Position numbers and translations under genes: made by a program
From: an uncultured Candidatus Saccharibacteria bacterium
GTDB taxonomy: Bacteria; Patescibacteriota; Dojkabacteria; J137
Direction of reading: 5' to 3'
NCBI GenBank assembly: GCA_964414295.1
Contig: CAYPVU010000020.1
Coordinates: 43,289 to 107,288, forward strand
DNA length: 64,000 bases
In this document: positions 4,867 to 52,655 of the stretch, piece after piece
How positions within the stretch are numbered: position 1 is the first letter of the stretch
Layout of the letters: each line of letters opens with the position of its first letter
The notes under the pieces: generated by a model
What the model was told of the DNA's origin: nothing
The model's database searches: none
The model's input: the letters and a program-made list of their open reading frames with translations, nothing else

Positions 4867-4876
4867 CTTTATTATA

Positions 4877-11746: not shown

Positions 11747-11753
11747 TATCTTT

Positions 11754-13445: not shown

Positions 13446-13521
13446 TTAGAACACTAACTTGTATTAGGTATAAATATTCTGTATTCTTATTAAGTATTGT
13501 TGTACTTATTAAGAAAAATAT

Positions 13522-15378
13522 ATGGGACTACTAGATTTTATTTCTAAAGGTGGTAATAACGCACAGGATCCTAATACAAATCCACCCGCTGTACCTGATT
13601 TTGCAAGTATTCAGCAAAGTTACACAAATCAATCTTTAGCTAATGTTTCTTATCCTATGGCAAATCCTACACCATATACACCAACTAATCCTGTTCCTCC
13701 TCAGTATAATCCTACAGAGCAACAGAGGCAGGAATTTCCTGATGTAAATGCTGCCCCAGCACCTGAGTTTGCACCAAATGCAGCAGTAGCACCTCAGCCT
13801 TTAGATATTATGGAACAAGGAAATGTACCTATGCAGGGTAATGTTACTATGCCAGAGATTCCACCAATGACGCAAAAATTAGTACAGAATCAGAATATTC
13901 AACCAGAAAATACTACAGATGTTCCTGCAGATGGATATGTAGACCCAAGTAAACATCCTGTAATTCCTGCTGTAGTTCCAAATCAAGGACATACTGCAAC
14001 ATTACCTGAGGGAATTAAGATTACAACTTTTGAACCTGTTAATCCTGAAAGTGAATCAGCTGCTGTTCCTCAACCAGTAGCAAATGAACCTGTAGTTGAT
14101 CAGCCACAATCTGTAGAAGTTCCGGAAGTAAAACCTTTTGAAGTTCAACCTAGTCCTGAATTTGCAGTTAGCAACTTTGATTCAAACACATCTTTAAATG
14201 TTGGTATAGAAGCAGCTCCTACTACCAATCAGTTTGAAAGTACAACTGTTGCACCGATGCAGAATAATAGTGTAGAACTACCAGTTATGCCAGATGTTAA
14301 TACATTAACACCTGTAAATACTGAAGCAATTTCAGCTTTACCTAGTCAAGTATTAACTCCAGAAGTTCCTGTAAATCAGAATGAAATTGCAAATCAGTCA
14401 CAATCAATTGAATCTCAAGCACAACAATCAAACTTACCTACTGAACCTGCAGTTGAACAGTCAGCGCCGGTAGAAGGAATTGAAATTGGTGTAGGGAGTA
14501 TGGATTCTCCAATGGCAGATTTGACTTCAGCACAAAACAGTAACTTAGATCCTATGCCAGCAGTAGAATCAACTTTGCCAGTGGCTTCTACAAATGAAAT
14601 ATCAACATTAGACCCAAATAATGCTCTAGTAGAGGATGTTACACAAAATGCTGTAATTCCTGTTCCTGAAGTAACAGAAGTAAAAGAATCAAAAGCCGAA
14701 ACAGCACCTGAAGCTACACAGCCAGTGCCAGTAAATTTTGAAATGAATTATTTTAGAACTATTGGATTTATAGGTTTAAATACTCAGCCTAATCTTAAAG
14801 TTGTAGAAAAGGTATCAGAGTTAGCAGGAAAATTGTCTGATTATGCAGAAGTATTTATAATTGACTCCGCAAAAGGATATGCGAAGACAATATTTGATAG
14901 TGCTAAAGAAAAGAACATAGAATTAACAGGTATGTACTTAAAACCTTTCCACTCTACTTATAGTGACGAAGCAGAATTAGGTGATTATGAGAATTTTACT
15001 GTAATGATGTTCTCAAATAATTCAGATAAAATTAAGAATTTAATAAAAGAGTCCGACATCTTAGTAATGCCTGAAATTACAGGATTAAATAGTCTTGGTA
15101 CATTGTTTGAGATTTGGTCTACAAATAGTATGTATCCAGGTCAGCATAAGCAGCTTATCTTATTAGGAAAAGGTTGGACAAATATTCTAACTCAGTTAAA
15201 AACATTATTTAAATTAACAGATGCTGATTTAAGCTTTGTTAATGTGTGTGCAACAGCAGAGGAAGCATTAGCAAAAATTACAGAGCTAGATAAAATGTAT
15301 TTAAACAAAGAAGTTAAACAACCAAGAAAGGTTATAGATTTAAGAGAAGAAGATGATGAGGAAGGATTATTTATATAA
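13522..15378 (+). CDS. protein with a ~400-aa P/N/Q/V/E-rich low-complexity N-terminus and a C-terminal LOG/TIGR00730-like (SLOG) Rossmann domain
   Basis: The C-terminal ~200 aa contains MPEITGLNSLGTLFEIWS, resembling the LOG PGGxGTxxE motif. The glycine-rich GGGxGxMG motif is degenerate. Confidence 0.5.
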   Translation: MGLLDFISKGGNNAQDPNTNPPAVPDFASIQQSYTNQSLANVSYPMANPTPYTPTNPVPPQYNPTEQQRQEFPDVNAAPAPEFAPNAAVAPQPLDIMEQGNVPMQGNVTMPEIPPMTQKLVQNQNIQPENTTDVPADGYVDPSKHPVIPAVVPNQGHTATLPEGIKITTFEPVNPESESAAVPQPVANEPVVDQPQSVEVPEVKPFEVQPSPEFAVSNFDSNTSLNVGIEAAPTTNQFESTTVAPMQNNSVELPVMPDVNTLTPVNTEAISALPSQVLTPEVPVNQNEIANQSQSIESQAQQSNLPTEPAVEQSAPVEGIEIGVGSMDSPMADLTSAQNSNLDPMPAVESTLPVASTNEISTLDPNNALVEDVTQNAVIPVPEVTEVKESKAETAPEATQPVPVNFEMNYFRTIGFIGLNTQPNLKVVEKVSELAGKLSDYAEVFIIDSAKGYAKTIFDSAKEKNIELTGMYLKPFHSTYSDEAELGDYENFTVMMFSNNSDKIKNLIKESDILVMPEITGLNSLGTLFEIWSTNSMYPGQHKQLILLGKGWTNILTQLKTLFKLTDADLSFVNVCATAEEALAKITELDKMYLNKEVKQPRKVIDLREEDDEEGLFI

Positions 15379-38083: not shown

Positions 38084-38998
38084 ATGATTGAAATCAAAAA
38101 TGTAACTAAACGCTACAACAATAACGCTGCAGTAAATAATTTAAGTTTAAAAATAGATAAAGGGGAAATTGTAGGTTTACTAGGGCCAAATGGAGCTGGG
38201 AAAAGTACAACTATGAAGATTATTACGGGTTTAATAATTCCGGATGAAGGAGATGTTTTTATAAACGAAAAAAGCATAAGAGATTATCCTGCATACGGTA
38301 AAAAGAGAATTGGATTTATGCCGGAAAGTAATCCTTTGTATAAAGATATGATTGTTAAAGAGGCTATTGAATATTCTTTAAGTTTAAGTAATGTTGCTAA
38401 AAGCAAATATAAAGAAAGAATCGATTATGTTGTAAAGGCTACAGGTTTAGAAAATGTTTTCTATAAACCAATATCAGATTTATCAAAAGGTTATAAACAA
38501 AGAGTTGGTTTAGCACAGGTTTTAGCTAGCGATCCAGAGATCTTAATATTAGATGAACCAACTGAAGGTTTAGACCCAAACCAGAGGAATGAGATTAGGA
38601 AGCTTATTGTTGAATTAGGGAAGAATAAAACTGTAATTATTTCTACACATGTTCTGCAAGAAGTTGAACTAATGTGTAATAGAATTGTAATTATAAATAA
38701 AGGTGAGATTGTTAAAGATGGAAACAAAGATTCTTTAACAAAAGATAAATTAAAAAATACAACTGTATTAGTAACCTTAAAAGCATCAAAAAAACCTCAG
38801 CTTTCTATTAATGCTACTCAAGTTAAATTAGTAGAAGAAAATAATAATAAATTTACATTCGAAATAAAGGGAGGTGATGAAGAGGCTATTGTTTCTTCTA
38901 TTAATAAACAATTTAAAACTAGTGACTGGCAAATACTTCAATTAAAAACTGTAAGCCAAAATCTAGAAGAAGTATTTAGATCATTAACATTAAATTAA
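38084..38998 (+). CDS. ABC transporter ATP-binding protein
   Basis: Walker A GPNGAGKST, signature LSKGYKQR, Walker B ILILDEPTEGLD. Confidence 0.85.
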   Translation: MIEIKNVTKRYNNNAAVNNLSLKIDKGEIVGLLGPNGAGKSTTMKIITGLIIPDEGDVFINEKSIRDYPAYGKKRIGFMPESNPLYKDMIVKEAIEYSLSLSNVAKSKYKERIDYVVKATGLENVFYKPISDLSKGYKQRVGLAQVLASDPEILILDEPTEGLDPNQRNEIRKLIVELGKNKTVIISTHVLQEVELMCNRIVIINKGEIVKDGNKDSLTKDKLKNTTVLVTLKASKKPQLSINATQVKLVEENNNKFTFEIKGGDEEAIVSSINKQFKTSDWQILQLKTVSQNLEEVFRSLTLN

Positions 38999-39000
38999 AT

Positions 39001-41253
39001 ATGAAAACAAGAAAATTTAAATTTAACAAAAGTGTTCCTTCTTTAATTTTAAAAGAAATTAAATCAATCTTATTTTCACCAACAGGATTTATTGTAGGAA
39101 GTTTATTTATTTTTGTAGTAGGAATATTAGTATTCGGAATAGGAAGGTTTACACAATTTGGAACTAATGATCTAACACAAGTTTTTGGATATTTAGCTTT
39201 TGCTATGGCTATAGCAATTCCGGCATTAGTAATGGGCTCTATTTCAAAAGAAAAAGGTAATGGAACTATGGAGTATCTACTGTCTAAACCTTTATCTGAA
39301 TTTGAGATTTTACTAGCTAAGTTTATATCTTATTCCATTTTATCTGTACTACTAATATTACTTACTCTACCTTTAACTTTAGCTACAGCAGCTTATGCAG
39401 GAGTAGATGTAGGACAAGTATTTATGCAATACGCAGGTGCAATAATGTTAGCTGTTTCTATTGTAAGTGTAGGGATAGCAGTATCCGCACTATTTAAAAA
39501 TGAAGTTGCCTCATTTTTAACTACTGTTGTAATAGTGGCTTTGTTTATAATAACTGGCTCTAATTTAATTAACTTTTTACCGTTTAGTCTCTCAACTTTT
39601 TTAGATAGAATTAGTTTATTATCTCACTATCAATCAGTATCTAGAGGAGTGTTAGATCTTAGAGATTTATTTTACTTTGCAGCATTTATATTCTTATTTT
39701 TATCTGTTGCATACTTTTTATTAATTAAAGATAAATACCCTAGTAAACATAAGTATTTAAGAAATACAAAAATTGCTACAGTTCTTTTTGTGATTATTGC
39801 CTTTTTAGTAGGGACTTTAGGACAAGTTATACCCGGAAGGCTAGATTTTACTTCTGATCAAAGATATACCCTATCTCCAGCAACAGTAAATGTATTAAAT
39901 AATATTCAAGATACCTTAACAATTGATTATTACGCTTCCTCTAATTTACCTATTGAATTTCAATCAGAACTTAGAAGAGTAAGTGATTTGCTTACAGATT
40001 ACGCTAAGGCTTCTAATGGAAGAATTATTTTAAATACAAGAGAACCAGATAAAGATCAAACAATTCAATCACAGGCAGAAGCTGCTGGAATTACTCAAAT
40101 TAGGTTCTCTGTAAATTCCAGTGATTCAGCTCAAGTAGTTGTAGGTTATTTTGGTATTGCATTCAAATATCAGGATAAAAATGAAGCAATGAATCTAGAT
40201 AATAGTATTTTAAACGATCTAGAGTACCAGGTAACAAAGAAAGTTAAAAAACTTACAGAAATAAGTAAAAAGGTTGTAGCTTTTGTAAATAATAATGTTT
40301 TACATTCACTAAGCGGAGACTTAACTAGGTTAAACTCTGAGCTAGGTGATTTATTCGAAGTTAGAAATATTGAACTAACTTTAGAAAATCCCGAAGTACC
40401 TTCTGATATATCTGCAATAGTAATTGCTGGTCCAGTTGAAAGATTTTCAGATAAAACAATAGAGTCTCTAAAAGCATTCTTTAATAATGGAGGTAGCATT
40501 TTCTTTCTTACAGATACAATAGATACAAATACAGAAACACCTACAATTAATGAAAATGCTTTAGGAAATTTATTTGCAGATTATGGTGTAACTATAAATA
40601 ATGATTTAGTTTATGATTTAGATAGTAATAATATAGTTGCACTGCAGTCACTATTTTCCCCAGTAATATTTAACTTCCCTCAATGGATAATTAGTAGACC
40701 AGTAGATAGTTCTACAGGTATAACTAAAGACGTTTCTGCTGTGTCTTTATTATGGGCAAATTCAATTAATATAGAACAAAAGGAAAATGTTACTGCTTCA
40801 GTACTACTAACTACTAGTGAAAATTCTAATATTCAATCATCAGATAGTCTAAATACTACATTTGAACAGACTTGGGAGTATAAGGATAGTGATTCTACTA
40901 GAACTGTTGGAGTTGCATTAGAAAATTCAAAGGGAGGTAGAGCTGTAATAGTGGCTGATACAGATTTTATTACTGATAACATTCTAAGTGCTCTAGCAGA
41001 GAGACAAGCTCAAGATAAGGAAGTTATATCCTTTACATTAAATTCAATTTCCTGGTTAGTTAGAGATAGTCTAGTAGGGAGCATTAAGGCTAAAACAAAC
41101 TCTGCAAAACTATTGAACTTAAATAGTAATCAACAAGTAACTTATATAGCTGCTAGTGTAGGAATTCCAATCCTAATCTGCACTCTAGTTTTTGCAGGTT
41201 ACTATCTAAAAAGAAGAAGAACACTAAACAAGATTTATAAATCTAATGAATAA
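39001..41253 (+). CDS. ABC-2 type permease fused to a large extracytoplasmic GldG-like (COG3225) domain with a C-terminal TM anchor
   Basis: N-terminal ~240 aa with 6 TM helices (ABC-2/GldF-like), a ~480-aa soluble region, and a C-terminal TM plus basic tail (YYLKRRRTLNK). Confidence 0.6.
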   Translation: MKTRKFKFNKSVPSLILKEIKSILFSPTGFIVGSLFIFVVGILVFGIGRFTQFGTNDLTQVFGYLAFAMAIAIPALVMGSISKEKGNGTMEYLLSKPLSEFEILLAKFISYSILSVLLILLTLPLTLATAAYAGVDVGQVFMQYAGAIMLAVSIVSVGIAVSALFKNEVASFLTTVVIVALFIITGSNLINFLPFSLSTFLDRISLLSHYQSVSRGVLDLRDLFYFAAFIFLFLSVAYFLLIKDKYPSKHKYLRNTKIATVLFVIIAFLVGTLGQVIPGRLDFTSDQRYTLSPATVNVLNNIQDTLTIDYYASSNLPIEFQSELRRVSDLLTDYAKASNGRIILNTREPDKDQTIQSQAEAAGITQIRFSVNSSDSAQVVVGYFGIAFKYQDKNEAMNLDNSILNDLEYQVTKKVKKLTEISKKVVAFVNNNVLHSLSGDLTRLNSELGDLFEVRNIELTLENPEVPSDISAIVIAGPVERFSDKTIESLKAFFNNGGSIFFLTDTIDTNTETPTINENALGNLFADYGVTINNDLVYDLDSNNIVALQSLFSPVIFNFPQWIISRPVDSSTGITKDVSAVSLLWANSINIEQKENVTASVLLTTSENSNIQSSDSLNTTFEQTWEYKDSDSTRTVGVALENSKGGRAVIVADTDFITDNILSALAERQAQDKEVISFTLNSISWLVRDSLVGSIKAKTNSAKLLNLNSNQQVTYIAASVGIPILICTLVFAGYYLKRRRTLNKIYKSNE

Positions 41254-42103
41254 AAGTACAATTAAAAAGTTATTAATAATAATAGTATTTTTAATATTGT
41301 TAGTAACTGGAGTTATGTTTATTGAAGGCAATTTAAAACAGAACTATAACTCTAGTTACTTCTTTAACGATCAAAAACTTTCTAATATAACTAAAGTTGA
41401 ATATGTTAATGCGTCTAATAATATTTTAATTAATAAAAGATCAGATGGCTGGTATGTGAATGATTATAAAGCTTCTAACAGAATTGTAGAAATAGCAATC
41501 TCTAAACTATTATCACTAAATGTTGAGTATATTGCATCTACTGAAGATAACTCCCACAGTTTATTCGAAGTAAATAATCCTAACAACAAGCTAATAATAG
41601 AAACAGAGAACTCAAGATTAGAATTTTTTATTGGCAAAAATACCTATTCAAATGGGAGCTTTATTAGAGATATTAATTCATCCTCAACTGTTGCTTTAGA
41701 TACCAATATATCGTCCATACTCGATTATGATGTAAATTACTTTAGGGATAAGGTTATTACTTCGTTTAACCCAAACTCGGTAGATGCTATAAAATTAAAT
41801 AACAAGGAATATAAAAAACAAGAGTGGGGAGGTAAAGAAGGTAATTTACAAAAGTTAATAATTAGATTAAGCAACTTAGAAGGTATCTCTATTGCTTCGG
41901 AAAGTGATAAAGCTAGTATATCAAAGCTATCTCCCCTTTTCACCGTTGACATTTCTACTAAAGGGAATGAGGTAAACTTATTCTTTTATGATTTTAATAG
42001 CATAAAGTATATAAAGGATAGAGCAAAGGAAGATTTTATAGTTATTACAGATTCAACTTTCCAAGATATTAATTCAGAGATAGAAACCTTAATTGGTGTA
42101 TAA
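41246..42103 (+). CDS. signal-anchored protein (DUF4340-like GldG-associated partner)
   Basis: N-terminal TM. Translationally coupled to the GldG-like gene by an 8-nt overlap. Confidence 0.4.
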   Translation: MNKSTIKKLLIIIVFLILLVTGVMFIEGNLKQNYNSSYFFNDQKLSNITKVEYVNASNNILINKRSDGWYVNDYKASNRIVEIAISKLLSLNVEYIASTEDNSHSLFEVNNPNNKLIIETENSRLEFFIGKNTYSNGSFIRDINSSSTVALDTNISSILDYDVNYFRDKVITSFNPNSVDAIKLNNKEYKKQEWGGKEGNLQKLIIRLSNLEGISIASESDKASISKLSPLFTVDISTKGNEVNLFFYDFNSIKYIKDRAKEDFIVITDSTFQDINSEIETLIGV

Positions 42104-42106
42104 CAC

Positions 42107-43027
42107 CTATTCTCTAATTTTTTTACTACCTATCTTTCCCGTTTTACTAGAATAATTAATATTGAGTATGTCTTTTAGAGCTTTATTAAATCTAATTAGT
42201 AAGATTAAACTAACATTAATTATTATTACAACAATAATTAAAATATAATTTACATAAAAGAAAGTTGTTTTTTTTACAGTACTTTTGTTTGTAAGTGTAT
42301 CTGTTACTAATACTTCTGCACGATATTGTCCTATGTCTAAAAGATCAGAAATTGGGATGCTTGCATCAATATTGTAAGTTTCTGAATTATAAATCATCTT
42401 TAAATTCTCGTTTAAGACCTTTGTATATACTATCTGCCCTTTATTACTAATTATATTAAGATTAATTATTGGTTTTGATACTTGATTAATGGCTGGATTA
42501 TCAATAGTTAAATTTAAATTAACTACATTACTTATGAGTAACTTTTGCGATACAGCAAATTCTTTGATGATAGTGCCTACTTCACTAGAAAATGTAGAGT
42601 CTACGAATACACTTATAGTATAAGGAATTTGTAGTATTACTAAAGAATCATTATTACTTTTATCTGTAACCTCCAATACAATAGCTTTTTTATAAACTCC
42701 TTTTGAACTATTTTCAGGAACGATTAACTTGTAATCAATTACTTGAGTACCTTTAGAAGCTAAGATTACATTTAAAGAAGATAGTTCAATCCATGGTGTA
42801 CTTGTTTGAATAGGAACCTCATTAATAATATCGTATTCCTTTAAAACTATCGATATGGGTATCTCTTCATTATTAGTAATTGAAAACTTTCCTGAATGAC
42901 TGTCCTGTGTTTTTAAAGTTATACTCTCAGTTGCAGGAGTAATGGTAACTCCTGTCTCTGCAGCCTCAATCTGTTGACTAAAGACAGATATTAAAATTAC
43001 AATTGTTGTAAATATCCACTTAAACAT
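42107..43027 (-). CDS. anchored surface protein, B-type paralog 4 (signal peptide plus C-terminal TM anchor)
   Basis: The C-terminus IGQYRAEVLVTD...YILIIVVIIINVSLILLIRF is shared with 43020, 45073 and 47239. N-terminal signal peptide. Confidence 0.55.
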   Translation of the reverse strand: MFKWIFTTIVILISVFSQQIEAAETGVTITPATESITLKTQDSHSGKFSITNNEEIPISIVLKEYDIINEVPIQTSTPWIELSSLNVILASKGTQVIDYKLIVPENSSKGVYKKAIVLEVTDKSNNDSLVILQIPYTISVFVDSTFSSEVGTIIKEFAVSQKLLISNVVNLNLTIDNPAINQVSKPIINLNIISNKGQIVYTKVLNENLKMIYNSETYNIDASIPISDLLDIGQYRAEVLVTDTLTNKSTVKKTTFFYVNYILIIVVIIINVSLILLIRFNKALKDILNINYSSKTGKIGSKKIRE

Positions 43028-43931
43028 TTTTTCTTTTTAAATTTCTTACTGTAAAAATAATAATTCCCAAAATAATAACTATTAGCCAGATGGGTATAAC
43101 AAATATTCTGCTTTTTTGCGTATAAACGTTATTTTCAAGACCATATAAAAAATTTAAAGATACTTCATACTCACCAAGAACTAACTGATTAAAGTAAATA
43201 TCTTTTGTATAGTTTCTAAGAGAGAATGAGTTTACAATTCGGCCTTCAGTATTGAAATCACTGTTTAATACATCGGGACCAAAACCAAATTTCTTATTTA
43301 GTGTAATTACTCCTGTAGGAGTTATTATCTGATTACTGTTATTTAAAACAGTTATAGAGTAGTTTACGCCATTTGAAATATAATTATAACCAACATCAAA
43401 TGTATCTAAAGAGATATCTCCATAACTAATACCTTGTACACCTGCAACATTTATAATAAATGGAACGCCTATACTTTGCTTTATAGAAGTTTTTGTCTCA
43501 CTTAAATTATTATTACTATTAGTAATTGTTTCAAAAAGTAATGTAAATAAATAACCACCTGGGGGAGTCTCGGGATTTATAGCTAGATCAAGTGTGTATT
43601 CATATCTTTCTTTAGGCTTTAGTACAATTGTATTCTTAAAATTTCTAATCCAATTTAAAATTGTTTCATCAATACTTTCATCAAATAGAATTTCTTGATT
43701 ATTATTAATTAATTTAAAACTTCTTAAATTAACTCCTAATACTACTTCTTCTGACTCATTATTTAATAGCGTTATTAGAACCTTTTCAGAATCATTTCCC
43801 TTATAGTTTTTTTGAACCTTTATAGGGCTTATTGAAATTCCATTTCCTTCATCTGCAGTTATAATAATACTTCCAGAAAGAATAATTAGTAGTATAAAAG
43901 ATATTGTGAATAAACCCTTTAGTATATTCAT
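43020..43931 (-). CDS. anchored surface protein, B-type paralog 3 (DUF916/DUF3324-like topology)
   Basis: N-terminal signal. C-terminal GEYEVSLNF...FVIPIWLIVIILGIIIFTV plus basic tail, homologous to 45073 and 47239. Confidence 0.55.
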   Translation of the reverse strand: MNILKGLFTISFILLIILSGSIIITADEGNGISISPIKVQKNYKGNDSEKVLITLLNNESEEVVLGVNLRSFKLINNNQEILFDESIDETILNWIRNFKNTIVLKPKERYEYTLDLAINPETPPGGYLFTLLFETITNSNNNLSETKTSIKQSIGVPFIINVAGVQGISYGDISLDTFDVGYNYISNGVNYSITVLNNSNQIITPTGVITLNKKFGFGPDVLNSDFNTEGRIVNSFSLRNYTKDIYFNQLVLGEYEVSLNFLYGLENNVYTQKSRIFVIPIWLIVIILGIIIFTVRNLKRKNV

Positions 43932-45073
43932 AAATTTGTAAATGCAGTGAATGTTAATGTATCACTATAACTTTCCGCTGGAGTTAGTGTACTTGATTTT
44001 ACTCCCACCTCAACTGCTATTCTGCTTAAGCTGTCTGATCTTACAGCTCCTAATGAACTAATTAGTAGAGTTGAACTACCCAAGCTCCCACTTATTTGAC
44101 CTACATCTCCAGCTGTTGAAGAATTAAAGGGTGAATTCACTAAAAAGGAACCAATTGTTGGTGTTCCTGTAGAAGCAATTCTTAAGCCGTAACCTTCTGT
44201 AGTACCAGCTAGGTTTAAATTACCTGTAATTGATTCTATTGTTCCAGTATTCCCAACTATTCCACCCACAGTATTATTTCTAGAACTTTGTACCAAAATT
44301 TTTAAGCCACTATTAGAGTTAGTAGCTGCTTCAATGCAAATAAATGGAATATCTGTAGTGCTATATTTAGCAATCCCTGGAAATAATTGACCAAAGCTTA
44401 TTGATTGATCCTCAGGTGGTGTCTGAGTATTATTATTACAATCACTATTCACTGTATCTATACCCATTAATATTGTATTAGAAATATTTGCATTTAACTG
44501 AACAGTATCTACATTTACAGCTGATGAATCTCCTAATATTATAACTGCTAATTCACCACTATCTTGTAGTGTATTTAAAGTTATATTAAATACTGTATTG
44601 CTTATTACATTAGGATTATTAATATTATGATTAGCTCCATTACTATTTAATTGCACTCTTATACATTTATTACTAGCTAAAGTATCTGTTCCAGATGTAA
44701 TAGCAATTGTTAAAGCTGAATATATAGCGCCCCATGTAGATCCGCTAGGTGAACTACTTAGTGTTTTATTCGTAAAAGTACTGGTTTTACAATCCAGTAA
44801 ACTTCCTTCAGCTAAGGTGATATCAGTATAGTCAAATAAACTTCCAAAGCTAAATTCTGAAGGGAAACTTATATTAATGCTTTGTCCAGCAGATAAACCA
44901 TTTGGTAATACAAAATATATATTATGATTTGCAATTGCATTAGAAGAAACCCTACTCATTTGATTAAAGACAGTTGTAATTGTGTCTGCTTTTATCAAAG
45001 TAAAGTTTATATTTAACATCAGCCCAATTAAAAGGGCAGAGCCTAATTTTAATAGAAATCTTTTTTTAAACAT
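43928..45073 (-). CDS. secreted Thr/Ser/Gly-rich Cys-paired surface protein, A-type paralog 3
   Basis: Signal peptide, several Cys pairs and a C-terminal ...TLTFTAFTNL strand. Related to 46190 and 48257. Confidence 0.55.
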   Translation of the reverse strand: MFKKRFLLKLGSALLIGLMLNINFTLIKADTITTVFNQMSRVSSNAIANHNIYFVLPNGLSAGQSINISFPSEFSFGSLFDYTDITLAEGSLLDCKTSTFTNKTLSSSPSGSTWGAIYSALTIAITSGTDTLASNKCIRVQLNSNGANHNINNPNVISNTVFNITLNTLQDSGELAVIILGDSSAVNVDTVQLNANISNTILMGIDTVNSDCNNNTQTPPEDQSISFGQLFPGIAKYSTTDIPFICIEAATNSNSGLKILVQSSRNNTVGGIVGNTGTIESITGNLNLAGTTEGYGLRIASTGTPTIGSFLVNSPFNSSTAGDVGQISGSLGSSTLLISSLGAVRSDSLSRIAVEVGVKSSTLTPAESYSDTLTFTAFTNL

Positions 45074-46176
45074 TAAATTTTTTTTGGAGTTTTTTTTAAT
45101 TCCCTAAGTTCTTTTGTTTTTCTTCTATCTCTTATGTAGATAAAAATGAGTAGAGCAATTATGATTGCTGCCACAAGAACTACTTTCCAAGGAATAATCC
45201 ATACATATATTGAAGAAACAATTTTTGGACTTACATTAAAAGTTACTCCTAATCTAGCTTCGTATTGTCCAAATCGAAAGTGAGAGAGTTCATAAACAAA
45301 TTGTTCAATAAAATTACCATTTACAGGATAGTCTGGATCAATCCAGCTATTTGTAAATTTTCTTGTTGTTCCAGGATAAATATCTAATTCCTCATCATTA
45401 AATGGGATTGTAATCTTAGAACCAGAACCAAACAATTCTATGTAACCCTTTGGGCTTTGAGATAACAAATTTCCTTCATTTTTAATTCTTGTTATAAATT
45501 TAATATTATCGTAATTATATATAGGTAAAAATGAATCAACTTTAAATTCTATTAGATCAAGTTTAGTCTTTACTTCATCACAATATTCTTGATTTGTGCT
45601 ATTAACATTTATATGCAGCTGAGAGACTATAGAATTTCTAATTCCTACTTGAGAATCTTGTGCGTTACTATTTAAATTTTTGTTTAATTCTTCTCTTGGT
45701 GCTGTAGAAATAAAGATAGTTGCAAGGTTAGTTCCGCACCTTGCAATTTCACTAACAGAAACGCTAAAGGGTATAGAAACAATTTGTCCTGCACTTAAAG
45801 TAAATTTATCCATATTTAACTTTATCCAATTCGCTGGTTCGGCTTCATCATTGGGATTAGGGATTTGAAAATCTCTTTCATCTTCTTCACCTAGCTTTTC
45901 CATTGTCATAGGGTAAGCATATAGTTGAAGTGTATCAGGTTGCCTAGCATCTCCTAAAACTTTTAGTTCAAAGTTTTTAGTTTCTCCAGGAGTAATATCA
46001 ATGTAGTATTTATCTGGACTAATTACTGCTGCATTAATAGGTTTATTAAAATAATTAAATACAGTAATTGCAGCTATAAACGCAAGTATAAATAGTCTAA
46101 CTAAATAGGCTTTTTTCATAAGGATGTAAATATGTACATTACTTTTGAGTATAGAATAAAATCGCTGGATTTCCAA
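45073..46176 (-). CDS. anchored surface protein, B-type paralog 2
   Basis: AAVISPDKYYIDITPGE... N-terminus. C-terminal GQYEARLGVTFNV...WIIPWKVVLVAAIIIALLIFIYIRDRRK TM plus basic tail. Paralog of 47239. Confidence 0.6.
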   Translation of the reverse strand: MEIQRFYSILKSNVHIYILMKKAYLVRLFILAFIAAITVFNYFNKPINAAVISPDKYYIDITPGETKNFELKVLGDARQPDTLQLYAYPMTMEKLGEEDERDFQIPNPNDEAEPANWIKLNMDKFTLSAGQIVSIPFSVSVSEIARCGTNLATIFISTAPREELNKNLNSNAQDSQVGIRNSIVSQLHINVNSTNQEYCDEVKTKLDLIEFKVDSFLPIYNYDNIKFITRIKNEGNLLSQSPKGYIELFGSGSKITIPFNDEELDIYPGTTRKFTNSWIDPDYPVNGNFIEQFVYELSHFRFGQYEARLGVTFNVSPKIVSSIYVWIIPWKVVLVAAIIIALLIFIYIRDRRKTKELRELKKTPKKI

Positions 46177-46189
46177 TATCTAAATACAT

Positions 46190-47179
46190 CTATTTAGTAT
46201 AAGCAGTATAGAAAACTGTTTGAGTATAAGTACCAGTTGCAGTACCCATTGTTGCTCCGTGAGTTACTGTAAAGTGATGGCCTACTGTTGCTTTATCACT
46301 TGTTGTTGTTGATGTTGCTAATGTTGTTTCTGTTGTCGGTACTGTTTGATATGCTGATCCATATGATCCTGCTGCACTAAATCTTGCTCCTGCTGTTGAT
46401 ATGTAAAAACCATATGCTTCTGTTCCTGCATTTATTGTTCCAGTTGCATTTGTCATATTTACTGTTCCATTTGTGAATGCTCCTCCTGCTCTTACTCTTA
46501 CTGTTGCTCCTGTTGATGAGTTTGTTCCTACTCCTACATTGTATGCACATGTATTTACTGAGTTTACTGATAATACTCCTAAGTTACATGTATTTGGATT
46601 TGTCATTAAAGTTGTTGTTCCTGAATTGTATAGATCTAATGCTAATACTGGAGGTACTATTGCTCTTACTTCTACTTCATTTTCATCTGCTATGTAAGAT
46701 AGTCCTGCTCCTGTATCGTATGTTGATCCACTTCCTCCTACATTTACTGATACTGACCAGCTGTAGTTTCCTGCTGAAGATGGTGTTGTTAATTGATTAC
46801 TATCTCCTATTACTGTTGTTACTGTTGTTGTTACTGAACCTGAAGTAGTTAAAGTACATCTAAAGTATCCTGCAATAAATCCGGTACATGTTTTTGATGA
46901 TATATTTGTTCCACTTATTGATATGTCTCCATCTGTTAGTGCTGCTCCTCCGGTAAAGGTTGTTGGATATGTTATTTCTATTACACTATTATTTGTTATT
47001 GCTGTTACTGGAGTAAAGGTTACTGTTACATCTACTGCCGTAGAGACAGCTAAAGAATCAGAAACTACTGTTACATCTGTTAATACTGCAGCATTAATGT
47101 GCTGAGTTAAATTAGAAAGTGGAACAAAAACTACTAATAAAACTAATAGCTTTTGTACAAGATTATTTCTCATATTCAA
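46190..47179 (-). CDS. secreted Thr/Ser/Gly-rich Cys-paired surface protein, A-type paralog 2
   Basis: Signal peptide with an AxA site (INA/A). Conserved Cys pairs KTCTGFIAGYFRCT and NPNTCNLGVLSVNSVNTCAY. C-terminal ...VFYTAYTK. Collinear paralog of 48257. Confidence 0.6.
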   Translation of the reverse strand: MNMRNNLVQKLLVLLVVFVPLSNLTQHINAAVLTDVTVVSDSLAVSTAVDVTVTFTPVTAITNNSVIEITYPTTFTGGAALTDGDISISGTNISSKTCTGFIAGYFRCTLTTSGSVTTTVTTVIGDSNQLTTPSSAGNYSWSVSVNVGGSGSTYDTGAGLSYIADENEVEVRAIVPPVLALDLYNSGTTTLMTNPNTCNLGVLSVNSVNTCAYNVGVGTNSSTGATVRVRAGGAFTNGTVNMTNATGTINAGTEAYGFYISTAGARFSAAGSYGSAYQTVPTTETTLATSTTTSDKATVGHHFTVTHGATMGTATGTYTQTVFYTAYTK

Positions 47180-47238
47180 TATTAAAAAATGAACGTTCTT
47201 ATCATTAAAACAAATGTAAAAAGAGGTGTCAATTATAA

Positions 47239-48294
47239 TTAATTTCTCTTTTTCATTTCTTTTTTTAGGTATTTAATTTCCTGCTTAGTCTTATAGCTAT
47301 TTTTTGCAAACCAAATTACACCAATTAAAATTACTAAAAAAAATAGAATAACTTTCCAAGGAAAAATCCAAATAGTAGTAGTAGCAATTATAGGTTTTTG
47401 AATGTTTTTTGTAACTCCTAATCTAGCAGTGTATGGACCTATTCTAAAGTTTGTTAACTCATAAATAAACTCTTGAAAAATATTCCCTCTAGGGTAATTA
47501 GGATCCATCCAAGTAGTATTAAAAATTCTAGTCGATTTAGGGTAAATGTCTAAACTATTTTCATTGAATTCTAAAGTAACTTTTTTACCTATCCCAAAAA
47601 GCTCAATAAATCCTTTTATATTTCTAGATAAATATTCCGATTCATTTTCAATGGATGTTTTAAATTCGATATTATCGTAGTTAAATATAGGAAGGGTGGC
47701 TGTTGTTTTAAATTCTTTAAGAATTAAATCCTCATAATATGCACAATTACTATTATCAACTTTTGATGTGGAGATATGTATTTGACTAATAACTTCATTT
47801 GCAATTGATATATTACTTCCTTGTGCTTCAGTTGTTTCTTCTGCTTCCGAAACAGCTAAGCCAGTTAAAGAACTTTGGCATAGATAATCTGTAGGAATAT
47901 TTAATTGCCAGTTAACATTTACAGTTTGGCCGGGGTCCACCTTTACTTGCTTATCTATAACGTTAATCCAGTTAGATACATCATCTTTATTATTAGGATC
48001 AGGTGAATAGAAACTTCTTTCGTTACCAGTGCCTATTTTCTTTACGCCTATTACTCTTATATTGTATGTTACAGTTTTATTTTGATTTGGAGCGGAATAA
48101 ATTGTTAAAGTCTTATTAATAGTATTACTTTCCTTTGTATCAATATAATACTTATCTGGACTAATTACTGCTGCACTAGCTTTGTAAGAAGTAAATAGGA
48201 CTAATAAAAAGAAAATAGTAAAAATCAAGCCTTTCCTTTTAAATTTAATAGTCATATTAATTAGTGTAAGCTCTATAGGTGACCTTGTGAGCAT
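47239..48294 (-). CDS. anchored surface protein, B-type paralog 1
   Basis: AAVISPDKYYIDTKESN... N-terminus. C-terminal WIFPWKVILFFLVILIGVIWFAKNSYKTK TM plus basic tail. Confidence 0.6.
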   Translation of the reverse strand: MLTRSPIELTLINMTIKFKRKGLIFTIFFLLVLFTSYKASAAVISPDKYYIDTKESNTINKTLTIYSAPNQNKTVTYNIRVIGVKKIGTGNERSFYSPDPNNKDDVSNWINVIDKQVKVDPGQTVNVNWQLNIPTDYLCQSSLTGLAVSEAEETTEAQGSNISIANEVISQIHISTSKVDNSNCAYYEDLILKEFKTTATLPIFNYDNIEFKTSIENESEYLSRNIKGFIELFGIGKKVTLEFNENSLDIYPKSTRIFNTTWMDPNYPRGNIFQEFIYELTNFRIGPYTARLGVTKNIQKPIIATTTIWIFPWKVILFFLVILIGVIWFAKNSYKTKQEIKYLKKEMKKRN

Positions 48295-49252
48295 AATTGC
48301 CTACTTGTGTTGTAGAACTAATTGCAGCTGCATGAGTTATTGTTAAATGCTGCGCAGTAGTTAATAAATCACTTGTTTGTGTAGAAGATGCAATTGATAC
48401 CTCTGTTGTTGGAACAGCTTTATAAGCATCATCGTAGTTGTTTAAAGCAGCAAACCTAGAACCTGGTGTGGAGATATAAAAGCCATACGATTCTACCCCT
48501 GCACTAATAGTTCCAGAAGTATTTGTAAAATTTACTGCACCATTTCTAAGTGCTCCATCGGAATTAATGCTTAGACTTGCTCCATTTTGATTATTTGTTC
48601 CAATTCCAATGTCGTATAGACATGTTTTAACAGCATTAATAGTAAGTACGCCTAATCCGCAAGAATTTGGATTAGATAATTTAGTATTAGTTCCCGCCTG
48701 ATATATTTCTAAAGAAAGGTTAGGCGGAACGTAAGCAGTAATTTGTACTTCGTTTTCTTTTACATCTTCAGAAGAAATATAAGCTAGACCAGCACCACTA
48801 TCAACTGTTGTACCTAATCCTCCTATATCTACTGCTGCAGAAAAAGAGTAATTTCCTTCTGCTGAAGGTGTTGTTAGTTGGTTTGACGATCCAATAATTA
48901 CAGTTACGGCCGATGTAAATGAACTTGAAACATTTAATGTACATACAAAATATCCATTTACAAACCCTGAACAATTTTTCCCGGTTATATTACCACCACT
49001 TATTGCAATGTCTGTATTTGTAAGTGCTGCTCCCCCTGTAAATAGAGTATCGTAAGAAATACTTAGAATGGTTCCATTTGTTATTGCTGAAGCAGGGGTA
49101 AATGTTAATGTTATATTTGTTGCAGTTGATTCATTCTGGGATGCCGGTGTAACAGTAAAATTTGTTAGACTTGCAGCGTTTAATTTAGAAAAAAAGAAAA
49201 CAGATACTGAAACTAAGAATATAGTAGAAATAAAGAATTTTACTCTTTTCAT
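48257..49252 (-). CDS. secreted Thr/Ser/Gly-rich Cys-paired surface protein, A-type paralog 1
   Basis: Signal peptide. KNCSGFVNGYFVCT and NPNSCGLGVLTINAVKTCLY. C-terminal ...VTYRAYTN. Confidence 0.6.
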   Translation of the reverse strand: MKRVKFFISTIFLVSVSVFFFSKLNAASLTNFTVTPASQNESTATNITLTFTPASAITNGTILSISYDTLFTGGAALTNTDIAISGGNITGKNCSGFVNGYFVCTLNVSSSFTSAVTVIIGSSNQLTTPSAEGNYSFSAAVDIGGLGTTVDSGAGLAYISSEDVKENEVQITAYVPPNLSLEIYQAGTNTKLSNPNSCGLGVLTINAVKTCLYDIGIGTNNQNGASLSINSDGALRNGAVNFTNTSGTISAGVESYGFYISTPGSRFAALNNYDDAYKAVPTTEVSIASSTQTSDLLTTAQHLTITHAAAISSTTQVGNYAHKVTYRAYTN

Positions 49253-49315
49253 TGATAGGTATTACTTAATGAATCTATTAATAGTTAAACATTATTTGCA
49301 AATGGTGTCAATTTA

Positions 49316-50728
49316 TTAATTCAACCATTTTACATTTATACCTATAAGTTTATTATCGTAAACTTTGTTGGTAATAGTATCAAATACTATTATAGATCCT
49401 GAATATGGTTTATTCTGAAAGCCGTAATTTCTAATTTTAGAATAATCTTTCAAATTAATTTCTGTGTACTGCTCCATTGCAATGTATCTATCATCTGCAC
49501 TAATAGTGGGTAATTCTAAACTAAAGTTTTCGGATTTAATTATATCGATTTTATTTCCTTCAAGATCTGTTTGTACTATTTTATATATACCTTTTGTTGT
49601 AGGTAATTCTTTCCAAAATTCCGCATATAAAATCTCATTAGTTCTATTTTTAAATTGAGGATCAAGTGCTGGAGTATCTCCATTAGTAATTTGCTTAGTG
49701 TTTCGATTTGAATCAAAAACAGTTATAAATTGTGCAGTTGTATATGTATTTAACGGGTCAAAATTTATAAGTGCTAATAATGTATTATCGTAGTTAAAGT
49801 TCCCGTTAGATAAAAATCTTCCTATGCCTACATACTCTTCTTGCTGATCTGTTTCTGCTAGATTAAAAAAGGAATCACCGGTTTTATATAGAAGTGAGCT
49901 TCCATCTCTAGAATATTCAATAAAAGCAACATCTTTTGCAGTATCTTGAGGATTAAACTCTTTTTCTTCTTGAGTATCGATATTATAGACATAAACTTTT
50001 GCGTCTGACCTTGGCAAGTAGTAAGTAGGGTAAATCTCAATCTCTTGTTTTATATATGCAAATTCATTCTTATATTTAGATGGCGAAAAAGAAAAGGAAT
50101 TAATTCTAATGTTAGGCAAATTAAAGTCTTTCACTTCGCCTGTATTTCTATTAAGTATTTCGATATTATTCTTATACTTGTCTTCAGTAACTACAACTAA
50201 GTAATTTGAATTTATTCCATAAAATATAATATTTTCTCTTTGTAATAATTGTTGTCTGCCAGTTTGATCTGCATTATAAATTGCAATTGTATCTAGATTA
50301 GAACCAGGAGTTTTTTCAACAACCGCAAACTTAGGAATTTCTGTTGTGAACTCATAATTAAAGTCCTCAGTTAATGTATCTCCATAAATATCAATAATAT
50401 CCTTTTTTATTATAAGTGTGTATTTAGTTTGGGAATCTAGAGATGTATCAGGAATAATAACAAGTGTATTTCCGCTCCATAAAGATCTAAATTTAATTTC
50501 AGGTTCAATAATTATATTGTTTTCTATGGTTTCCTTTTTTATCGGCCTATTAAAGTCTATTCTAATCTGTTGGTTACTAATGTTTGCATTATCTTTATCC
50601 CCGTTTAAATTTACTGCAACAACCTTTGTATGTATAAATGTATTTAAAAATATAAACATAAGTATTAATGCAAAAATACTTACAAAAGAAGATATTAATA
50701 ATGTATTAAATTTAATTTTTCTTTTCAT
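49316..50728 (-). CDS. signal-anchored protein with a TolB/WD40-like beta-propeller
   Basis: N-terminal TM. Repeated ~40-aa units with S(R/P)DG-like turns (YSRDGSSLLY, ISADDRYIAM). Confidence 0.45.
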   Translation of the reverse strand: MKRKIKFNTLLISSFVSIFALILMFIFLNTFIHTKVVAVNLNGDKDNANISNQQIRIDFNRPIKKETIENNIIIEPEIKFRSLWSGNTLVIIPDTSLDSQTKYTLIIKKDIIDIYGDTLTEDFNYEFTTEIPKFAVVEKTPGSNLDTIAIYNADQTGRQQLLQRENIIFYGINSNYLVVVTEDKYKNNIEILNRNTGEVKDFNLPNIRINSFSFSPSKYKNEFAYIKQEIEIYPTYYLPRSDAKVYVYNIDTQEEKEFNPQDTAKDVAFIEYSRDGSSLLYKTGDSFFNLAETDQQEEYVGIGRFLSNGNFNYDNTLLALINFDPLNTYTTAQFITVFDSNRNTKQITNGDTPALDPQFKNRTNEILYAEFWKELPTTKGIYKIVQTDLEGNKIDIIKSENFSLELPTISADDRYIAMEQYTEINLKDYSKIRNYGFQNKPYSGSIIVFDTITNKVYDNKLIGINVKWLN

Positions 50729-51573
50729 TAAAATATATATGGATTTTCTGGTTGATCAATTTTAATTATATTAATCGGTTCAATAAATAACTGATTATCA
50801 GAATTAATGTTGAATTTTCCTTCAACTTCAATCCATTCATCTTGTTTATATTTATACCCCTCGTTTAAGCTTAATCTAAGTCCTACAGGTCTTGCATCAA
50901 CAGCACAACAAGTAACAATAAATCTAGCAATTAATACCTCGTTCTCTAATAAACTAATGTTTTCAGGTTTATAAATAAATCCACTAATTTTTACATCTTT
51001 ATCCTTATAGAATAAAGGATCCGGATTGTAGTTTATTAGTGCTATCCAATCTCCTAAACTATAGTTAGAGGTAGATTTATTAAAATTATTAAGCGTTGTA
51101 TTTGTAGCTTGAGTAAGATTTATAGAGTTAAGATCAATTGATCTTTGAGAAGCGGTTACAGAACTTAGACTTTTTGCAGGTAAAGTTACTCCTATAAGAA
51201 TAATTCCTACAACAAGTGAATTACCTAATAAATCGTTCTTTAAAAATTGAGAAAGATTTTTATTAGGAGTAATAATTAAAAACGCAGCAATAATTATAAA
51301 CAGACTACTGAAAATAAAGGAAAGAAATACTAATAAAACAATAATTAATATTCTTGAATTTATAACTTCTCTTAACTCTTTTAAGTTACTTTTATGTTTA
51401 TAAAAAAAGTAAACTAAAGATATAAGTCCAATTAAAATAGCAACTATACTTGCTAGTAGGGATTCTTCAAAGAATCTTGGATGTATGTATAAAGATAGTT
51501 CTTTATTTAAATATAAAGATAATCCGTAAAATCCCATTATTGTTAATATTATTGAACTTATAATCTGTTTCAT
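50728..51573 (-). CDS. DUF1980/TIGR03943-family membrane protein (usual partner of COG0701 permeases)
   Basis: Three N-terminal TM helices plus a C-terminal soluble domain. Start/stop overlaps the upstream permease. Confidence 0.5.
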   Translation of the reverse strand: MKQIISSIILTIMGFYGLSLYLNKELSLYIHPRFFEESLLASIVAILIGLISLVYFFYKHKSNLKELREVINSRILIIVLLVFLSFIFSSLFIIIAAFLIITPNKNLSQFLKNDLLGNSLVVGIILIGVTLPAKSLSSVTASQRSIDLNSINLTQATNTTLNNFNKSTSNYSLGDWIALINYNPDPLFYKDKDVKISGFIYKPENISLLENEVLIARFIVTCCAVDARPVGLRLSLNEGYKYKQDEWIEVEGKFNINSDNQLFIEPINIIKIDQPENPYIF

Positions 51574-52655
51574 TTTATAAAGTTAACTATCAGTGCTGTT
51601 AAAAGACTTAGCATAAACACTAAACTACTTATAATTAAAAGCAATTTAGGTTTATATGTTGTTCTTAACATTGTTAATATTTTAATATCAATCATTGGAC
51701 CAAATACTAAGAATCCTATAATTGACCCTATTGTAAAACTATTTGCATAAGATAATGCAAAGAAAGCATCAACATTTGAACAAATTGAAATAATAAATGC
51801 CAACAATAACATTGCTAAAATTGATAGAATTGGATTCTGCCCAATTGCAATTATAATGTCTCTCGGAACAAATGTTTGGGAAGCAGCAGCAAGCATTGCA
51901 CCAATAATAAGGACTTTAAAGATTTCTATAAATTCTCTTTGAAATGTATTAAGTGCTTCTATAAATCTATTTTTATTATGTTTATGAACTTGAGTATCAC
52001 AGATTTCTTGATAGAAATCTAAGTTTAAAAACTCATTCTGAGGTTTTTTAAAACTTAATAATATTCCTACAAAGTTTGCAATTATAAATGCAGCTACTAA
52101 TCTAATTACAACAACACTTTTATCGTAATTAAAAGCTTCTAATGTAGTTAAAAAGGTTACTGGATTTAATATAGGAGCAGCTAATAAAAATGTTATTGAC
52201 TGTGATACGCTAAATCCACCTAAAAGTAATCTTCTTGCTACCGGGATGTTACCGCATTCGCACACTGGTAAGAAAACCCCCAATACCGAGACCTTTACAT
52301 GTGAGTATATTCTATTAGTCTTAAACTTATTATCAATACTTGAAGCTGATTCATACAAATAATGTAAAGGGAATAGTATTTTTTTATGTTTATAAACAAA
52401 TGTTTTTAAGAATTCAAAAACCCCAACTCCAATTAGAGTTGAAATTGAGACTCCTAAAATAATAAAAGGAAAAGCTTCTACAACAATACTTAAAACTAAT
52501 GTAATAAAGTCCTGAACTCTTAACGATAGCAATTGTCCAGATTCTGAATATTGAAAAAAACTATATCCACCATTAAGTTGATATAAAAAGATTCCAGCGA
52601 GTATAGCCAGCAAAAAAAGTTTATTGATATTTGTGCTAGAAAATAAGTTCTTCAT
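51570..52655 (-). CDS. DUF318/COG0701-family permease (ArsP-like)
   Basis: About 8-10 TM helices and the conserved LPVCECGNIPVARRL motif. Confidence 0.6.
   Translation of the reverse strand: MKNLFSSTNINKLFLLAILAGIFLYQLNGGYSFFQYSESGQLLSLRVQDFITLVLSIVVEAFPFIILGVSISTLIGVGVFEFLKTFVYKHKKILFPLHYLYESASSIDNKFKTNRIYSHVKVSVLGVFLPVCECGNIPVARRLLLGGFSVSQSITFLLAAPILNPVTFLTTLEAFNYDKSVVVIRLVAAFIIANFVGILLSFKKPQNEFLNLDFYQEICDTQVHKHNKNRFIEALNTFQREFIEIFKVLIIGAMLAAASQTFVPRDIIIAIGQNPILSILAMLLLAFIISICSNVDAFFALSYANSFTIGSIIGFLVFGPMIDIKILTMLRTTYKPKLLLIISSLVFMLSLLTALIVNFIK

Follow-up and report, generated by a model that had tools for sequence, protein, structure and literature searches.

A WxLIP-like membrane anchor paired with secreted two-domain proteins beside a permease module in a patescibacterial gene block

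Ten minus-strand genes at 42107-52655 of a 64,000-nt stretch of DNA from an uncultured Candidatus Saccharibacteria bacterium (GTDB: Patescibacteriota, Dojkabacteria; the whole stretch analysed is hereafter called the window) raise the question of whether a permease, its partner and a series of secreted and membrane-anchored proteins form one system, and what role the exported proteins might play. In ultrasmall Patescibacteria, surface display and host attachment are poorly known beyond type IV pili; the literature that we found on patescibacterial attachment describes type IV pili, and our literature search returned no paper combining DUF916 or DUF3324 with CPR terms. All ten open reading frames are present, in the following gene order:

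51570-52655, minus strand: ArsP_1/DUF318-type permease, 361 aa (Pfam ArsP_1, E 4.5e-53)
50728-51573, minus strand: TIGR03943/DUF1980 permease partner subunit, 281 aa (TIGR03943, E 1.6e-40; DUF1980_C, E 8e-20)
49316-50728, minus strand: N-terminally anchored Big_5 Ig-like protein with a beta-rich C-terminal region, 470 aa (Big_5, E 5e-13)
48257-49252, minus strand: A1, secreted two-domain A-module protein, 331 aa, ending in ...YRAYTN (BslA/YweA-like Ig domain at about 25-160, unannotated C-terminal domain at about 175-331)
47239-48294, minus strand: B1, type I membrane protein of the WxLIP-like kind (two Ig-like domains between a signal peptide and a C-terminal TM helix, then a basic tail)
46190-47179, minus strand: A2, paralogue of A1, 19.9% Thr (54% identity to A1; separate orthologues in loci L004 and L005)
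45073-46176, minus strand: B2, paralogue of B1 (39% identity to B1)
43928-45073, minus strand: A3, diverged A-module protein, 381 aa (hhalign against the A family 95.8%, E 7.6e-9, full length)
43020-43931, minus strand: B3, diverged WxLIP-like anchor, 303 aa (hhalign against the B family 97%, E 1.1e-10)
42107-43027, minus strand: B4, most diverged WxLIP-like anchor, 306 aa (B4-family profile against the B family 97.5%, E 5e-12)

Gene order and the permease module

The nine junctions, in gene order, measure -4, -1, +63, -38, +59, +13, -1, -4 and -8 nt. Likelier internal ATG starts lie at 48255 for B1 (giving 338 aa) and at 46119 for B2 (348 aa), and with these A1 and B1 no longer overlap but lie 1 nt apart, and the A2/B2 gap widens to 70 nt. 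No terminator-like hairpin was found in the minus-strand intergenic gaps of the block, the sole hairpin at the block end lying at 42095-42107, and promoter-like matches were not above those in shuffles (65 vs. 69.7 +/- 9.1). The reading of the block as a single transcript therefore draws on spacing only. Of the ten-gene operon that the original prediction had described, the real, tightly packed genes on one strand remain, but they fall into two modules.

The first two genes are ordinary members of the ArsP_1 (PF03773; DUF318/COG0701) and TIGR03943 families and together make up a two-component permease: they are adjacent, overlap by 4 nt and both score above the curated cut-offs (180.8 vs. 32.3 bits for ArsP_1, 138.8 vs. 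88.8 bits for TIGR03943). The permease has about six hydrophobic segments and a VCECG motif and resembles, below threshold, the SO_0444 Cu/Zn efflux and SaoE families; residues 222-223 of the DUF1980 subunit form a CC motif. The substrate may be a metal or a thiol. The DUF1980 stop and the start of the Big_5 protein gene share 1 nt. This third gene had been taken for a TolB-like propeller, an assignment that we could not confirm, as the propeller hints are weak (TolB, E 0.002 over 35 residues; THOC3 propeller, E 0.008); comparison with PDB sequences found no relative. Unlike in other permeases of this type, a Big_5 membrane protein and the WxLIP-like B4 come after the pair, and we know of no earlier description of the permease pair together with these two proteins.

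It could be proposed that all ten genes constitute one system, in which the permease pair and the Big_5 protein would export, import or modify something needed for assembly of the A/B complex. The tight one-strand spacing and the lack of an intergenic terminator fit such a proposal, as does the block order, which is kept in loci L004, L005 and L007; all three, like L019, contain orthologues of the permease together with the Big_5 protein, which was seen in no other locus fetched. However, the full block occurs only in L004, L005 and L007, and because these are close syntenic relatives with common MutS and ABC-transporter flanks, their conserved blocks are not independent. Moreover, L019 keeps the same MutS/ABC-transporter frame with the permease, the DUF1980 subunit, the Big_5 protein and, directly after it, B4, but has none of A1, B1, A2, B2, A3 and B3, and in six other loci (L001/L002, L003, L006, L008, L015 and L018) A-B pairs are found without a permease, DUF1980 or Big_5 gene nearby. 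Thus, the present distribution argues against one ten-gene system, which we consider very unlikely, even though the retention of B4 in L019 points to some tie between a B-type protein and the permease. The original prediction had the permease pair leading a single system, and had itself named a lack of conservation between permease and surface proteins as evidence against it; this linkage is not conserved, and therefore we treat the block as two modules. B4 travels with the permease module, not with an A gene. Hence, module 1 would be a two-component permease with two membrane-anchored extracytoplasmic accessories, the Big_5 protein and B4, and module 2 would comprise the pairs A1-B1, A2-B2 and A3-B3.

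The B-type proteins and their relation to WxLIP

The WxL/Csc clusters of Lactobacillales, Listeria and Enterococcus encode WxLIP (= CscA) together with small and large WxL proteins (PMC10599100, PMC9772566, PMC1534035). WxLIP consists of a signal, two Ig domains and a C-terminal TM helix within 337-365 aa (PMC10599100); its conserved N-terminal strand, NQIDKxxxYFDLK, is predicted to enter the partner, and a WxL-WxLIP complex has been solved (PDB 9i25). The B-type proteins have the same layout at a similar size (303-348 aa), with a signal peptide, a DUF916-like and a DUF3324-like domain and the C-terminal TM helix and basic tail that had been anticipated for them. Alignment of the B family with WxLIP sequences from five Firmicute plasmid clusters gave an hhalign probability of 96.4% (E 1.2e-9, 216 columns spanning both domains), compared with 0.5-35% in controls; a wider B alignment (A5) reached 98.4% (E 1e-14), but since it contains an unrelated L016 neighbour, we rely on the 96.4% obtained from the clean alignment (A2). 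The best fold match of the B type is the solved EfmWxLIP1 structure, which the B profile also retrieved among PDB sequences (E 0.039), and an HMM of five WxLIP sequences finds the L007 orthologues of B (E 2e-7) and B3 (E 2.6e-6). Against Pfam, B proteins stay below the DUF916 cut-off and have no DUF3324 match, and WxLIP_PGBD matches at E < 0.1 were obtained for 5 of the 17 B members (best E 0.0025), all below the cut-off. Taken together, the profile-profile homology and the fold match uphold the DUF916/DUF3324-like character proposed originally: the homology of the B proteins to Firmicute WxLIP (DUF916 + DUF3324 + C-terminal TM helix) is remote but well supported.

The relatedness within both families is uneven. 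BLAST readily links B1 with B2 (39% identical, E 2e-72) and A1 with A2 (54% identical, E 5e-103), but shows no relation of A3, B3 and B4 to their paralogues, for which profiles were needed; the profile-profile comparison of the three A and four B paralogues, which the original prediction had called for, brought them in at 95.8, 97 and 97.5%, respectively. The B4-family profile matches WxLIP at 94.8% (E 5.5e-8) over the N-terminal domain only. An invariant I-x-P-D-K-Y marks the mature N-terminus of the B family, within a strand that aligns with the conserved WxLIP strand; hhalign puts B YYID on WxLIP YFDL, a similarity of position.

The A family and its C-terminal module

The A and B families show no relation to each other in profile comparison. 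As the original prediction stated, A proteins are rich in Thr, Ser, Gly and Asn and contain two Cys pairs; they are acidic, with no Trp in A1 and one each in A2 and A3. The Sec signals proposed for the A/B proteins are matched by N-terminal hydrophobic signal-like segments in six of the seven, but A3, though signal-like by eye, falls under the hydropathy threshold used. In each A protein, a BslA/YweA-like Ig domain precedes a C-terminal domain that has no annotation. A3 was recognised by HMM at E 1e-13 and has orthologues in L004, L005 and L007. No Pfam or NCBIfam family matches the A family above threshold, in agreement with the expectation that it is undescribed.

Searches at E <= 1e-3 recovered the A module in 1294 cluster representatives, a count of clusters and not of taxa. 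The module takes the form either of a small secreted protein or of the extreme C-terminus of proteins of 450-2500 aa: of 145 matches extending to the end of the profile, 144 finish no more than 6 residues from the protein C-terminus, and all 28 proteins of at least 450 aa carry it at the C-terminal end. In four of these 28, as well as in two L018 genes, only the C-terminal domain is present.

The A type was ruled out as a WxL domain. hhalign gave 6% for the A family against the WxL alignment and 0.5% for the A C-terminal domain against the WxL domain (score 15.9 vs. 11.1 for the reversed control), the solved WxL chain is not among the A fold hits, and A has no W-x-L motifs. In line with the original prediction, a WxL HMM run over the window ORFs gave no match at E <= 10, a regex scan found no C-terminal LPXTG in any window ORF, and Pfam found no sortase family among 18 proteins (those of the block and of eight neighbouring genes). 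WxL clusters often, but not always, come with an LPXTG protein or a sortase. The block therefore does not contain the at least two proteins with a C-terminal WxL domain, and its dual W-x-L motifs, that characterise a WxL cluster.

The resemblance of A to BslA raises the possibility of a coat, in which small A proteins would self-assemble through the BslA/YweA-like domain into a hydrophobic or protective layer and B would merely tether them. In BslA itself, function is defined by a surface-exposed hydrophobic cap. The A model matches BslA in Foldseek (TMt 0.58), showing a BslA-type Ig-like fold, Pfam BslA (PF17735) matches were obtained for 10 of 50 family members (E < 0.01; best E 2.3e-5), and the acidic, Thr/Ser/Gly-rich composition would also suit a coat. 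Nevertheless, every BslA match is under the Pfam cut-off (24.8 bits for A1 vs. the gathering cut-off of 38.7; A2 and A3 give no match), and the BslA-like domain is dispensable, being missing from at least four large members and the two L018 genes mentioned above. Moreover, unlike BslA/YweA, which are biofilm surface-layer proteins of Bacillus subtilis (PDB 4bhu, 5mkd), A contains a further, larger domain at its C-terminus and is paired with a membrane anchor. We thus judge a coat to be a rather improbable explanation in its own right, although it is compatible with, and not exclusive of, the surface display discussed below.

The three A paralogues within one block, together with the strands conserved at the two ends of mature A, would also be expected of a monoderm chaperone-assisted fibre, where A1, A2 and A3 polymerise by donor-strand exchange as major, minor and tip subunits and B proteins serve as membrane-tethered PapD-like chaperones or assembly platforms. 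B indeed has the two-domain Ig-like fold of PapD-like chaperones. In contrast to FimC, PapD, CfaA and CsuC, however, it is anchored in the membrane by a C-terminal helix and is not a soluble chaperone; there is no outer membrane, Pfam and NCBIfam scans found no usher family in the block, and the sequence-profile affinity shown for B is to WxLIP. Furthermore, A is modelled (pLDDT 93) as two finished sandwich domains from which no disordered N-terminal arm protrudes, although this argument is weak given that AF2 can self-complement. In the 28 large proteins, hundreds to thousands of residues precede the A module, so that a free donor strand at the N-terminus is no general trait of the A family. 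Hence, we regard a fibre as unlikely.

A-B pairing and surface display

In 10 of 11 distinct loci, the gene immediately after a small A gene is a B gene, the exception being a distant small A gene in L016 with no B neighbour; many of the large A-module genes of L014 and L017 do not lie beside a B gene. The A1-B1 and A2-B2 pairs have separate orthologues in related genomes, in accordance with the earlier proposal that the pairs were duplicated and then diverged. As in WxL/Csc clusters, the anchor gene adjoins the genes of secreted partners, the partners are either small (module only) or large (with varied domains N-terminal to it), the module in each case forming the extreme C-terminus, and clusters are multiplied within one genome. 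Here, however, the partner has a BslA-like Ig domain and an unannotated C-terminal domain instead of a WxL domain, A and B occur one to one in tandem whereas one WxLIP accompanies at least two WxL proteins, and the host belongs to Patescibacteria and not to Bacillota. Since A is not WxL, the analogy is carried by the B type alone and the complex in 9i25 cannot simply be transferred.

Given these observations, we somewhat favour the explanation that the block consists of two modules, the second of which serves non-covalent surface display by A and B, following a WxL/Csc-like logic with a new partner domain. B would be Sec-exported and held in the cytoplasmic membrane by its C-terminal helix, with its two WxLIP-homologous Ig-like domains exposed as a dock for the neighbouring secreted A. 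The A module, the C-terminal domain of which is always at the extreme C-terminus, would take the role that the WxL domain has in Firmicutes, and as a C-terminal tag it would keep giant proteins, some of them with FG-GAP, MAM, beta-helix or Ig-like domains, on the surface. The likely contact is beta-strand complementation, in which the B strand AAVISPDKYYID, the invariant strand at the mature N-terminus that aligns with NQIDKxxxYFDLK of WxLIP, would join the conserved terminal strand of A. The A module and the WxLIP-like B thus probably represent a new means of retaining proteins at the cell surface.

The locus offers a concrete candidate for patescibacterial surface display, namely a WxLIP-related membrane dock and a partner module without an above-threshold family, and the B proteins would extend the WxLIP family beyond the Bacillota hosts in which we saw it here. 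This suggests that WxLIP-type anchors can work with more than one partner fold. More tentatively, the pair could represent a widespread, unrecognised, sortase-independent system of Patescibacteria for giant adhesin-like and small coat proteins; if so, it would be the physical basis of host-cell attachment in at least some episymbiotic lineages, and it would also mark the WxLIP anchor as an ancient monoderm device with swapped partner domains. The A module marks more than 1000 protein clusters, among them giant proteins with adhesin-type domains, and as a putative new C-terminal sorting/anchoring module it could serve to search CPR genomes for surface proteins. FG-GAP, MAM or Ig-like domains were found in four of the seven large members scanned, and in precomputed Pfam annotation a further large A-module gene, of L018, carries Beta_helix and one of L017 carries Laminin_G_3; among 12 large members, most N-termini are signal-like by eye.

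The ten-gene block and its two modules

All ten minus-strand reading frames of the original prediction (42107-52655) were found exactly as it gave them, encoding three permease-module proteins, three secreted two-domain proteins (A) and four C-terminally anchored proteins (B):

51570-52655, minus strand: ArsP_1/DUF318 permease (gene 1; E 4.5e-53)
50728-51573, minus strand: TIGR03943/DUF1980 partner (gene 2; E 1.6e-40, above the curated cut-off)
49316-50728, minus strand: N-terminal membrane segment and Big_5 Ig-like domain (gene 3; E 5e-13)
48257-49252, minus strand: A1
47239-48294, minus strand: B1
46190-47179, minus strand: A2
45073-46176, minus strand: B2
43928-45073, minus strand: A3
43020-43931, minus strand: B3
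42107-43027, minus strand: B4

Adjacent genes overlap or are separated by no more than 63 nt, no terminator-like hairpin was found by scanning the minus-strand intergenic gaps of the block, and promoter-like matches in the scan showed no excess over shuffled controls. Judged by spacing alone, co-transcription of the ten genes is plausible. The window has a G+C content of ~30%, and its nearest relatives are MAGs labelled Patescibacteria group bacterium BroJett037, uncultured Candidatus Saccharibacteria and Candidatus Dojkabacteria. A 123-aa plus-strand ORF consisting almost entirely of Leu (46477-46848), antisense to the Thr-rich A2 gene, is a by-product of codon composition and no gene.

Among the window and related loci from other genomes and metagenomes (L001-L019), 11 distinct loci have a small A gene. 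B follows it directly in 10 of them (the window, L001/L002, L003-L008, L015 and L018), L016 being the sole exception. Among the relatives compared with the window, the permease, DUF1980 and Big_5 genes lie beside A/B genes only in L004, L005 and L007, and these three loci are not independent, since they have flanking genes in common with the window (a GldG-type ABC transporter in all three, MutS in L005 and L007). L019 (metagenome contig Ga0226835_1000136), which was found by an alignment-based search after the Big_5 protein by itself had found no locus in metagenomes, is flanked, as in the window, by MutS and, at the opposite end, by the GldG-type transporter; its positions 7987-12285 hold a four-gene unit of permease, DUF1980, Big_5 protein and B4 orthologue, and A1, B1, A2, B2, A3 and B3 are all absent. 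Given this gene content and the non-independence of the other three loci, the ten genes are two modules: a permease module, to which B4 belongs, and an A/B module lying between the Big_5 gene and B4. The permease genes had originally been read as part of one A/B system; a single ten-gene system, whose linkage is confined to the syntenic L004, L005 and L007 and is broken in L019, is very unlikely. Moreover, as the four-gene unit of L019 occurs without A genes, B4 may pair with something other than an A protein, perhaps with the Big_5 protein. Next to B4, plus-strand genes for an ABC ATPase, a fused ABC-2 permease/GldG-like protein (ABC_transp_aux, DUF7088) and a DUF4340 protein (38084-42103) converge on the block, with a small hairpin at the point of convergence (42095-42107). 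In L004, L005, L007 and L019 the transporter is found at the corresponding place, and DUF4340 is absent from L019.

B proteins as remote WxLIP homologues

The B type had been predicted to resemble the WxL-interacting protein of Firmicutes (WxLIP; DUF916, DUF3324 and a C-terminal TM helix), the partner of the WxL domain. The AF2 model of B (pLDDT 83.5) comprises a signal helix, two beta-sandwich domains and a long C-terminal helix. We built WxLIP and WxL alignments from five Firmicute plasmid WxL clusters, and the prediction was supported: the B family matched the WxLIP alignment with 96.4% probability (E 1.2e-9) over 216 columns spanning both domains, with low values in the control comparisons (B with WxL, 1.3%; A with WxLIP, 20%; WxLIP with WxL, 0.5%). 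A wider B alignment reached 98.4%, but it included one sequence, a 421-aa neighbour in L016, that is unrelated to B according to hhalign, and we prefer the former value. Direct matches were weak (E 0.039 to EfmWxLIP1 in the PDB; Pfam WxLIP_PGBD in 5 of 17 B members), and the WxLIP HMM matched the B and B3 orthologues of L007 at E 2e-7 and 2.6e-6, respectively. The profile alignment with its low controls, together with the agreeing weak direct matches, identifies B, at the level of sequence comparison, as a remote WxLIP homologue lying under Pfam thresholds; the anchor is a member of a known family. A wide B-profile search for intermediates with Pfam DUF916/DUF3324 returned 25 matches, none so annotated, and our literature search found no link between DUF916/DUF3324 and CPR. 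The invariant mature N-terminus of B, ISPDKYYID, aligned with a conserved WxLIP strand that is predicted to insert into the WxL partner (PMC10599100).

The terminal A module and its proposed docking

The A profile, searched against 1.84 billion representatives, gave 1294 matches at E <= 1e-3 and 549 at E <= 1e-10. In the best 153 of the 1294 matches, from which end position and size were read, 145 run to the end of the profile, and 144 of these finish no more than 6 residues short of the protein C-terminus; the module forms the C-terminal end of 28 proteins of 473-2513 aa (four of which have only its C-terminal domain). Pfam scans of seven large members found FG-GAP, MAM or Ig-like domains in four and no recognised domain in three; in precomputed Pfam annotation, another L018 gene that ends with the A C-terminal domain has Beta_helix, and one of the members in L017 has Laminin_G_3. 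Most of twelve large members have signal-like N-termini by eye, and large A-module genes form tandem arrays within one metagenome assembly (L001, L014, L017). This pattern matches exactly that of WxL proteins, which occur in small and large forms with the shared domain always last (PMC9772566). From the strict restriction of the module to the terminus, its free C-terminal strand would seem to be important. In distant representatives the terminal motif ...YTAYTN changes to ...TVTxSF or ...TASADF, with Phe last; what is conserved, it seems, is a beta-strand at the very end that carries an aromatic residue as, or close to, its last residue.

The confident AF2 model of A (pLDDT 93.3) has two beta domains, and in fold comparison the whole protein resembles tandem-Ig adhesins, e.g., ClfA and FnBPA. 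The A profile had no match among PDB sequences at E <= 10, the A alignment offered no part sufficiently conserved for a locus search, and neither Pfam nor NCBIfam has a family covering the C-terminal domain. Sub-threshold Pfam BslA matches in 10 of 50 A-family members would fit a BslA-like coat, which would be compatible with docking to B; we regard such a coat as quite unlikely. A was also considered as a cryptic WxL domain, with YGFYIS and VTYxAYTN (~68-70 residues apart, as in large WxL proteins) replacing the two W-x-L strands. At the level of profile and fold comparison this was rejected: hhalign gave 6% and 0.5%, equal to the reversed-profile control, and the solved WxL chain 9i25_A was missing from the best fold matches; the A C-terminal domain is not detectably a WxL domain.

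We infer the biological role of the A/B system as follows, and judge this reading somewhat more probable than its converse: B proteins would act as membrane docks and A modules as docking domains of secreted proteins that bind them, the two making contact by beta-strand complementation, as proposed for WxLIP and WxL. Beta-strand complementation is also used by PapD-like chaperones, and B might instead be a tethered chaperone of a donor-strand-exchange fibre; with B matching WxLIP over both domains, we consider this unlikely. As far as the databases and literature were searched, the A partner module, the 1:1 tandem pairing and the occurrence in Patescibacteria are new.

In L003 (JGI 3300076001; 4664-9571 and 13301-13951), the A-B pair adjoins a protein of 1635 aa that has a faint match to BclA_C, and a dockerin-domain protein lies nearby; this is further surface-protein context. 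In L001 (GCA_015657875.1), 'nn' scaffold gaps at 1001-1003 and 4398-4399 break two large genes exactly inside repeated A modules, so that 'genes' of 108-110 aa are called from the module tail; these are apparently artefacts of assembling a repeated domain and no real small proteins.

Paralogues and permease genes

A1 and A2 (54% identical) and B1 and B2 (39%) are obvious paralogues. A3, B3 and B4 were not detected by BLAST and were placed by profile comparison, A3 with the A family (95.8%, E 8e-9), and B3 (97%, E 1e-10) and the B4-family profile (97.5%, E 5e-12) with the B family, which bears out the proposed grouping of three A and four B proteins into two families; the families show no relationship to each other. 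The paralogues are each matched by a separate orthologue in L004, L005 and L007, and hence the duplications predate these genomes. The proposed paralogue expansion therefore stands as regards duplication; it is old, and the array is a stable one and not the product of recent expansion. L007 (Patescibacteria bacterium BroJett037) has a single A-B pair ahead of A3-B3-B4, so pair copy number varies among relatives; its B1 orthologue (9986-11009) is frameshifted after ~218 codons.

Gene 3, previously called a TolB-like propeller, gave only faint propeller hints, the Big_5 domain being found instead. Our literature search on DUF1980/TIGR03943/DUF318 returned nothing on function. The permease resembles Cu/Zn efflux families weakly, below threshold, and in L004 (GCA_034680565.1, 1686-3534) genes for a Fur-family regulator and a ZIP metal transporter stand immediately upstream of the ArsP_1/DUF1980 pair; from these two observations, our guess is a metal-related substrate. 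Candidate ligands for a metal or thiol are provided by two Cys motifs, VCECG in the permease (residues 131-135) and TCCAVDA in the DUF1980 protein (residues 221-227).
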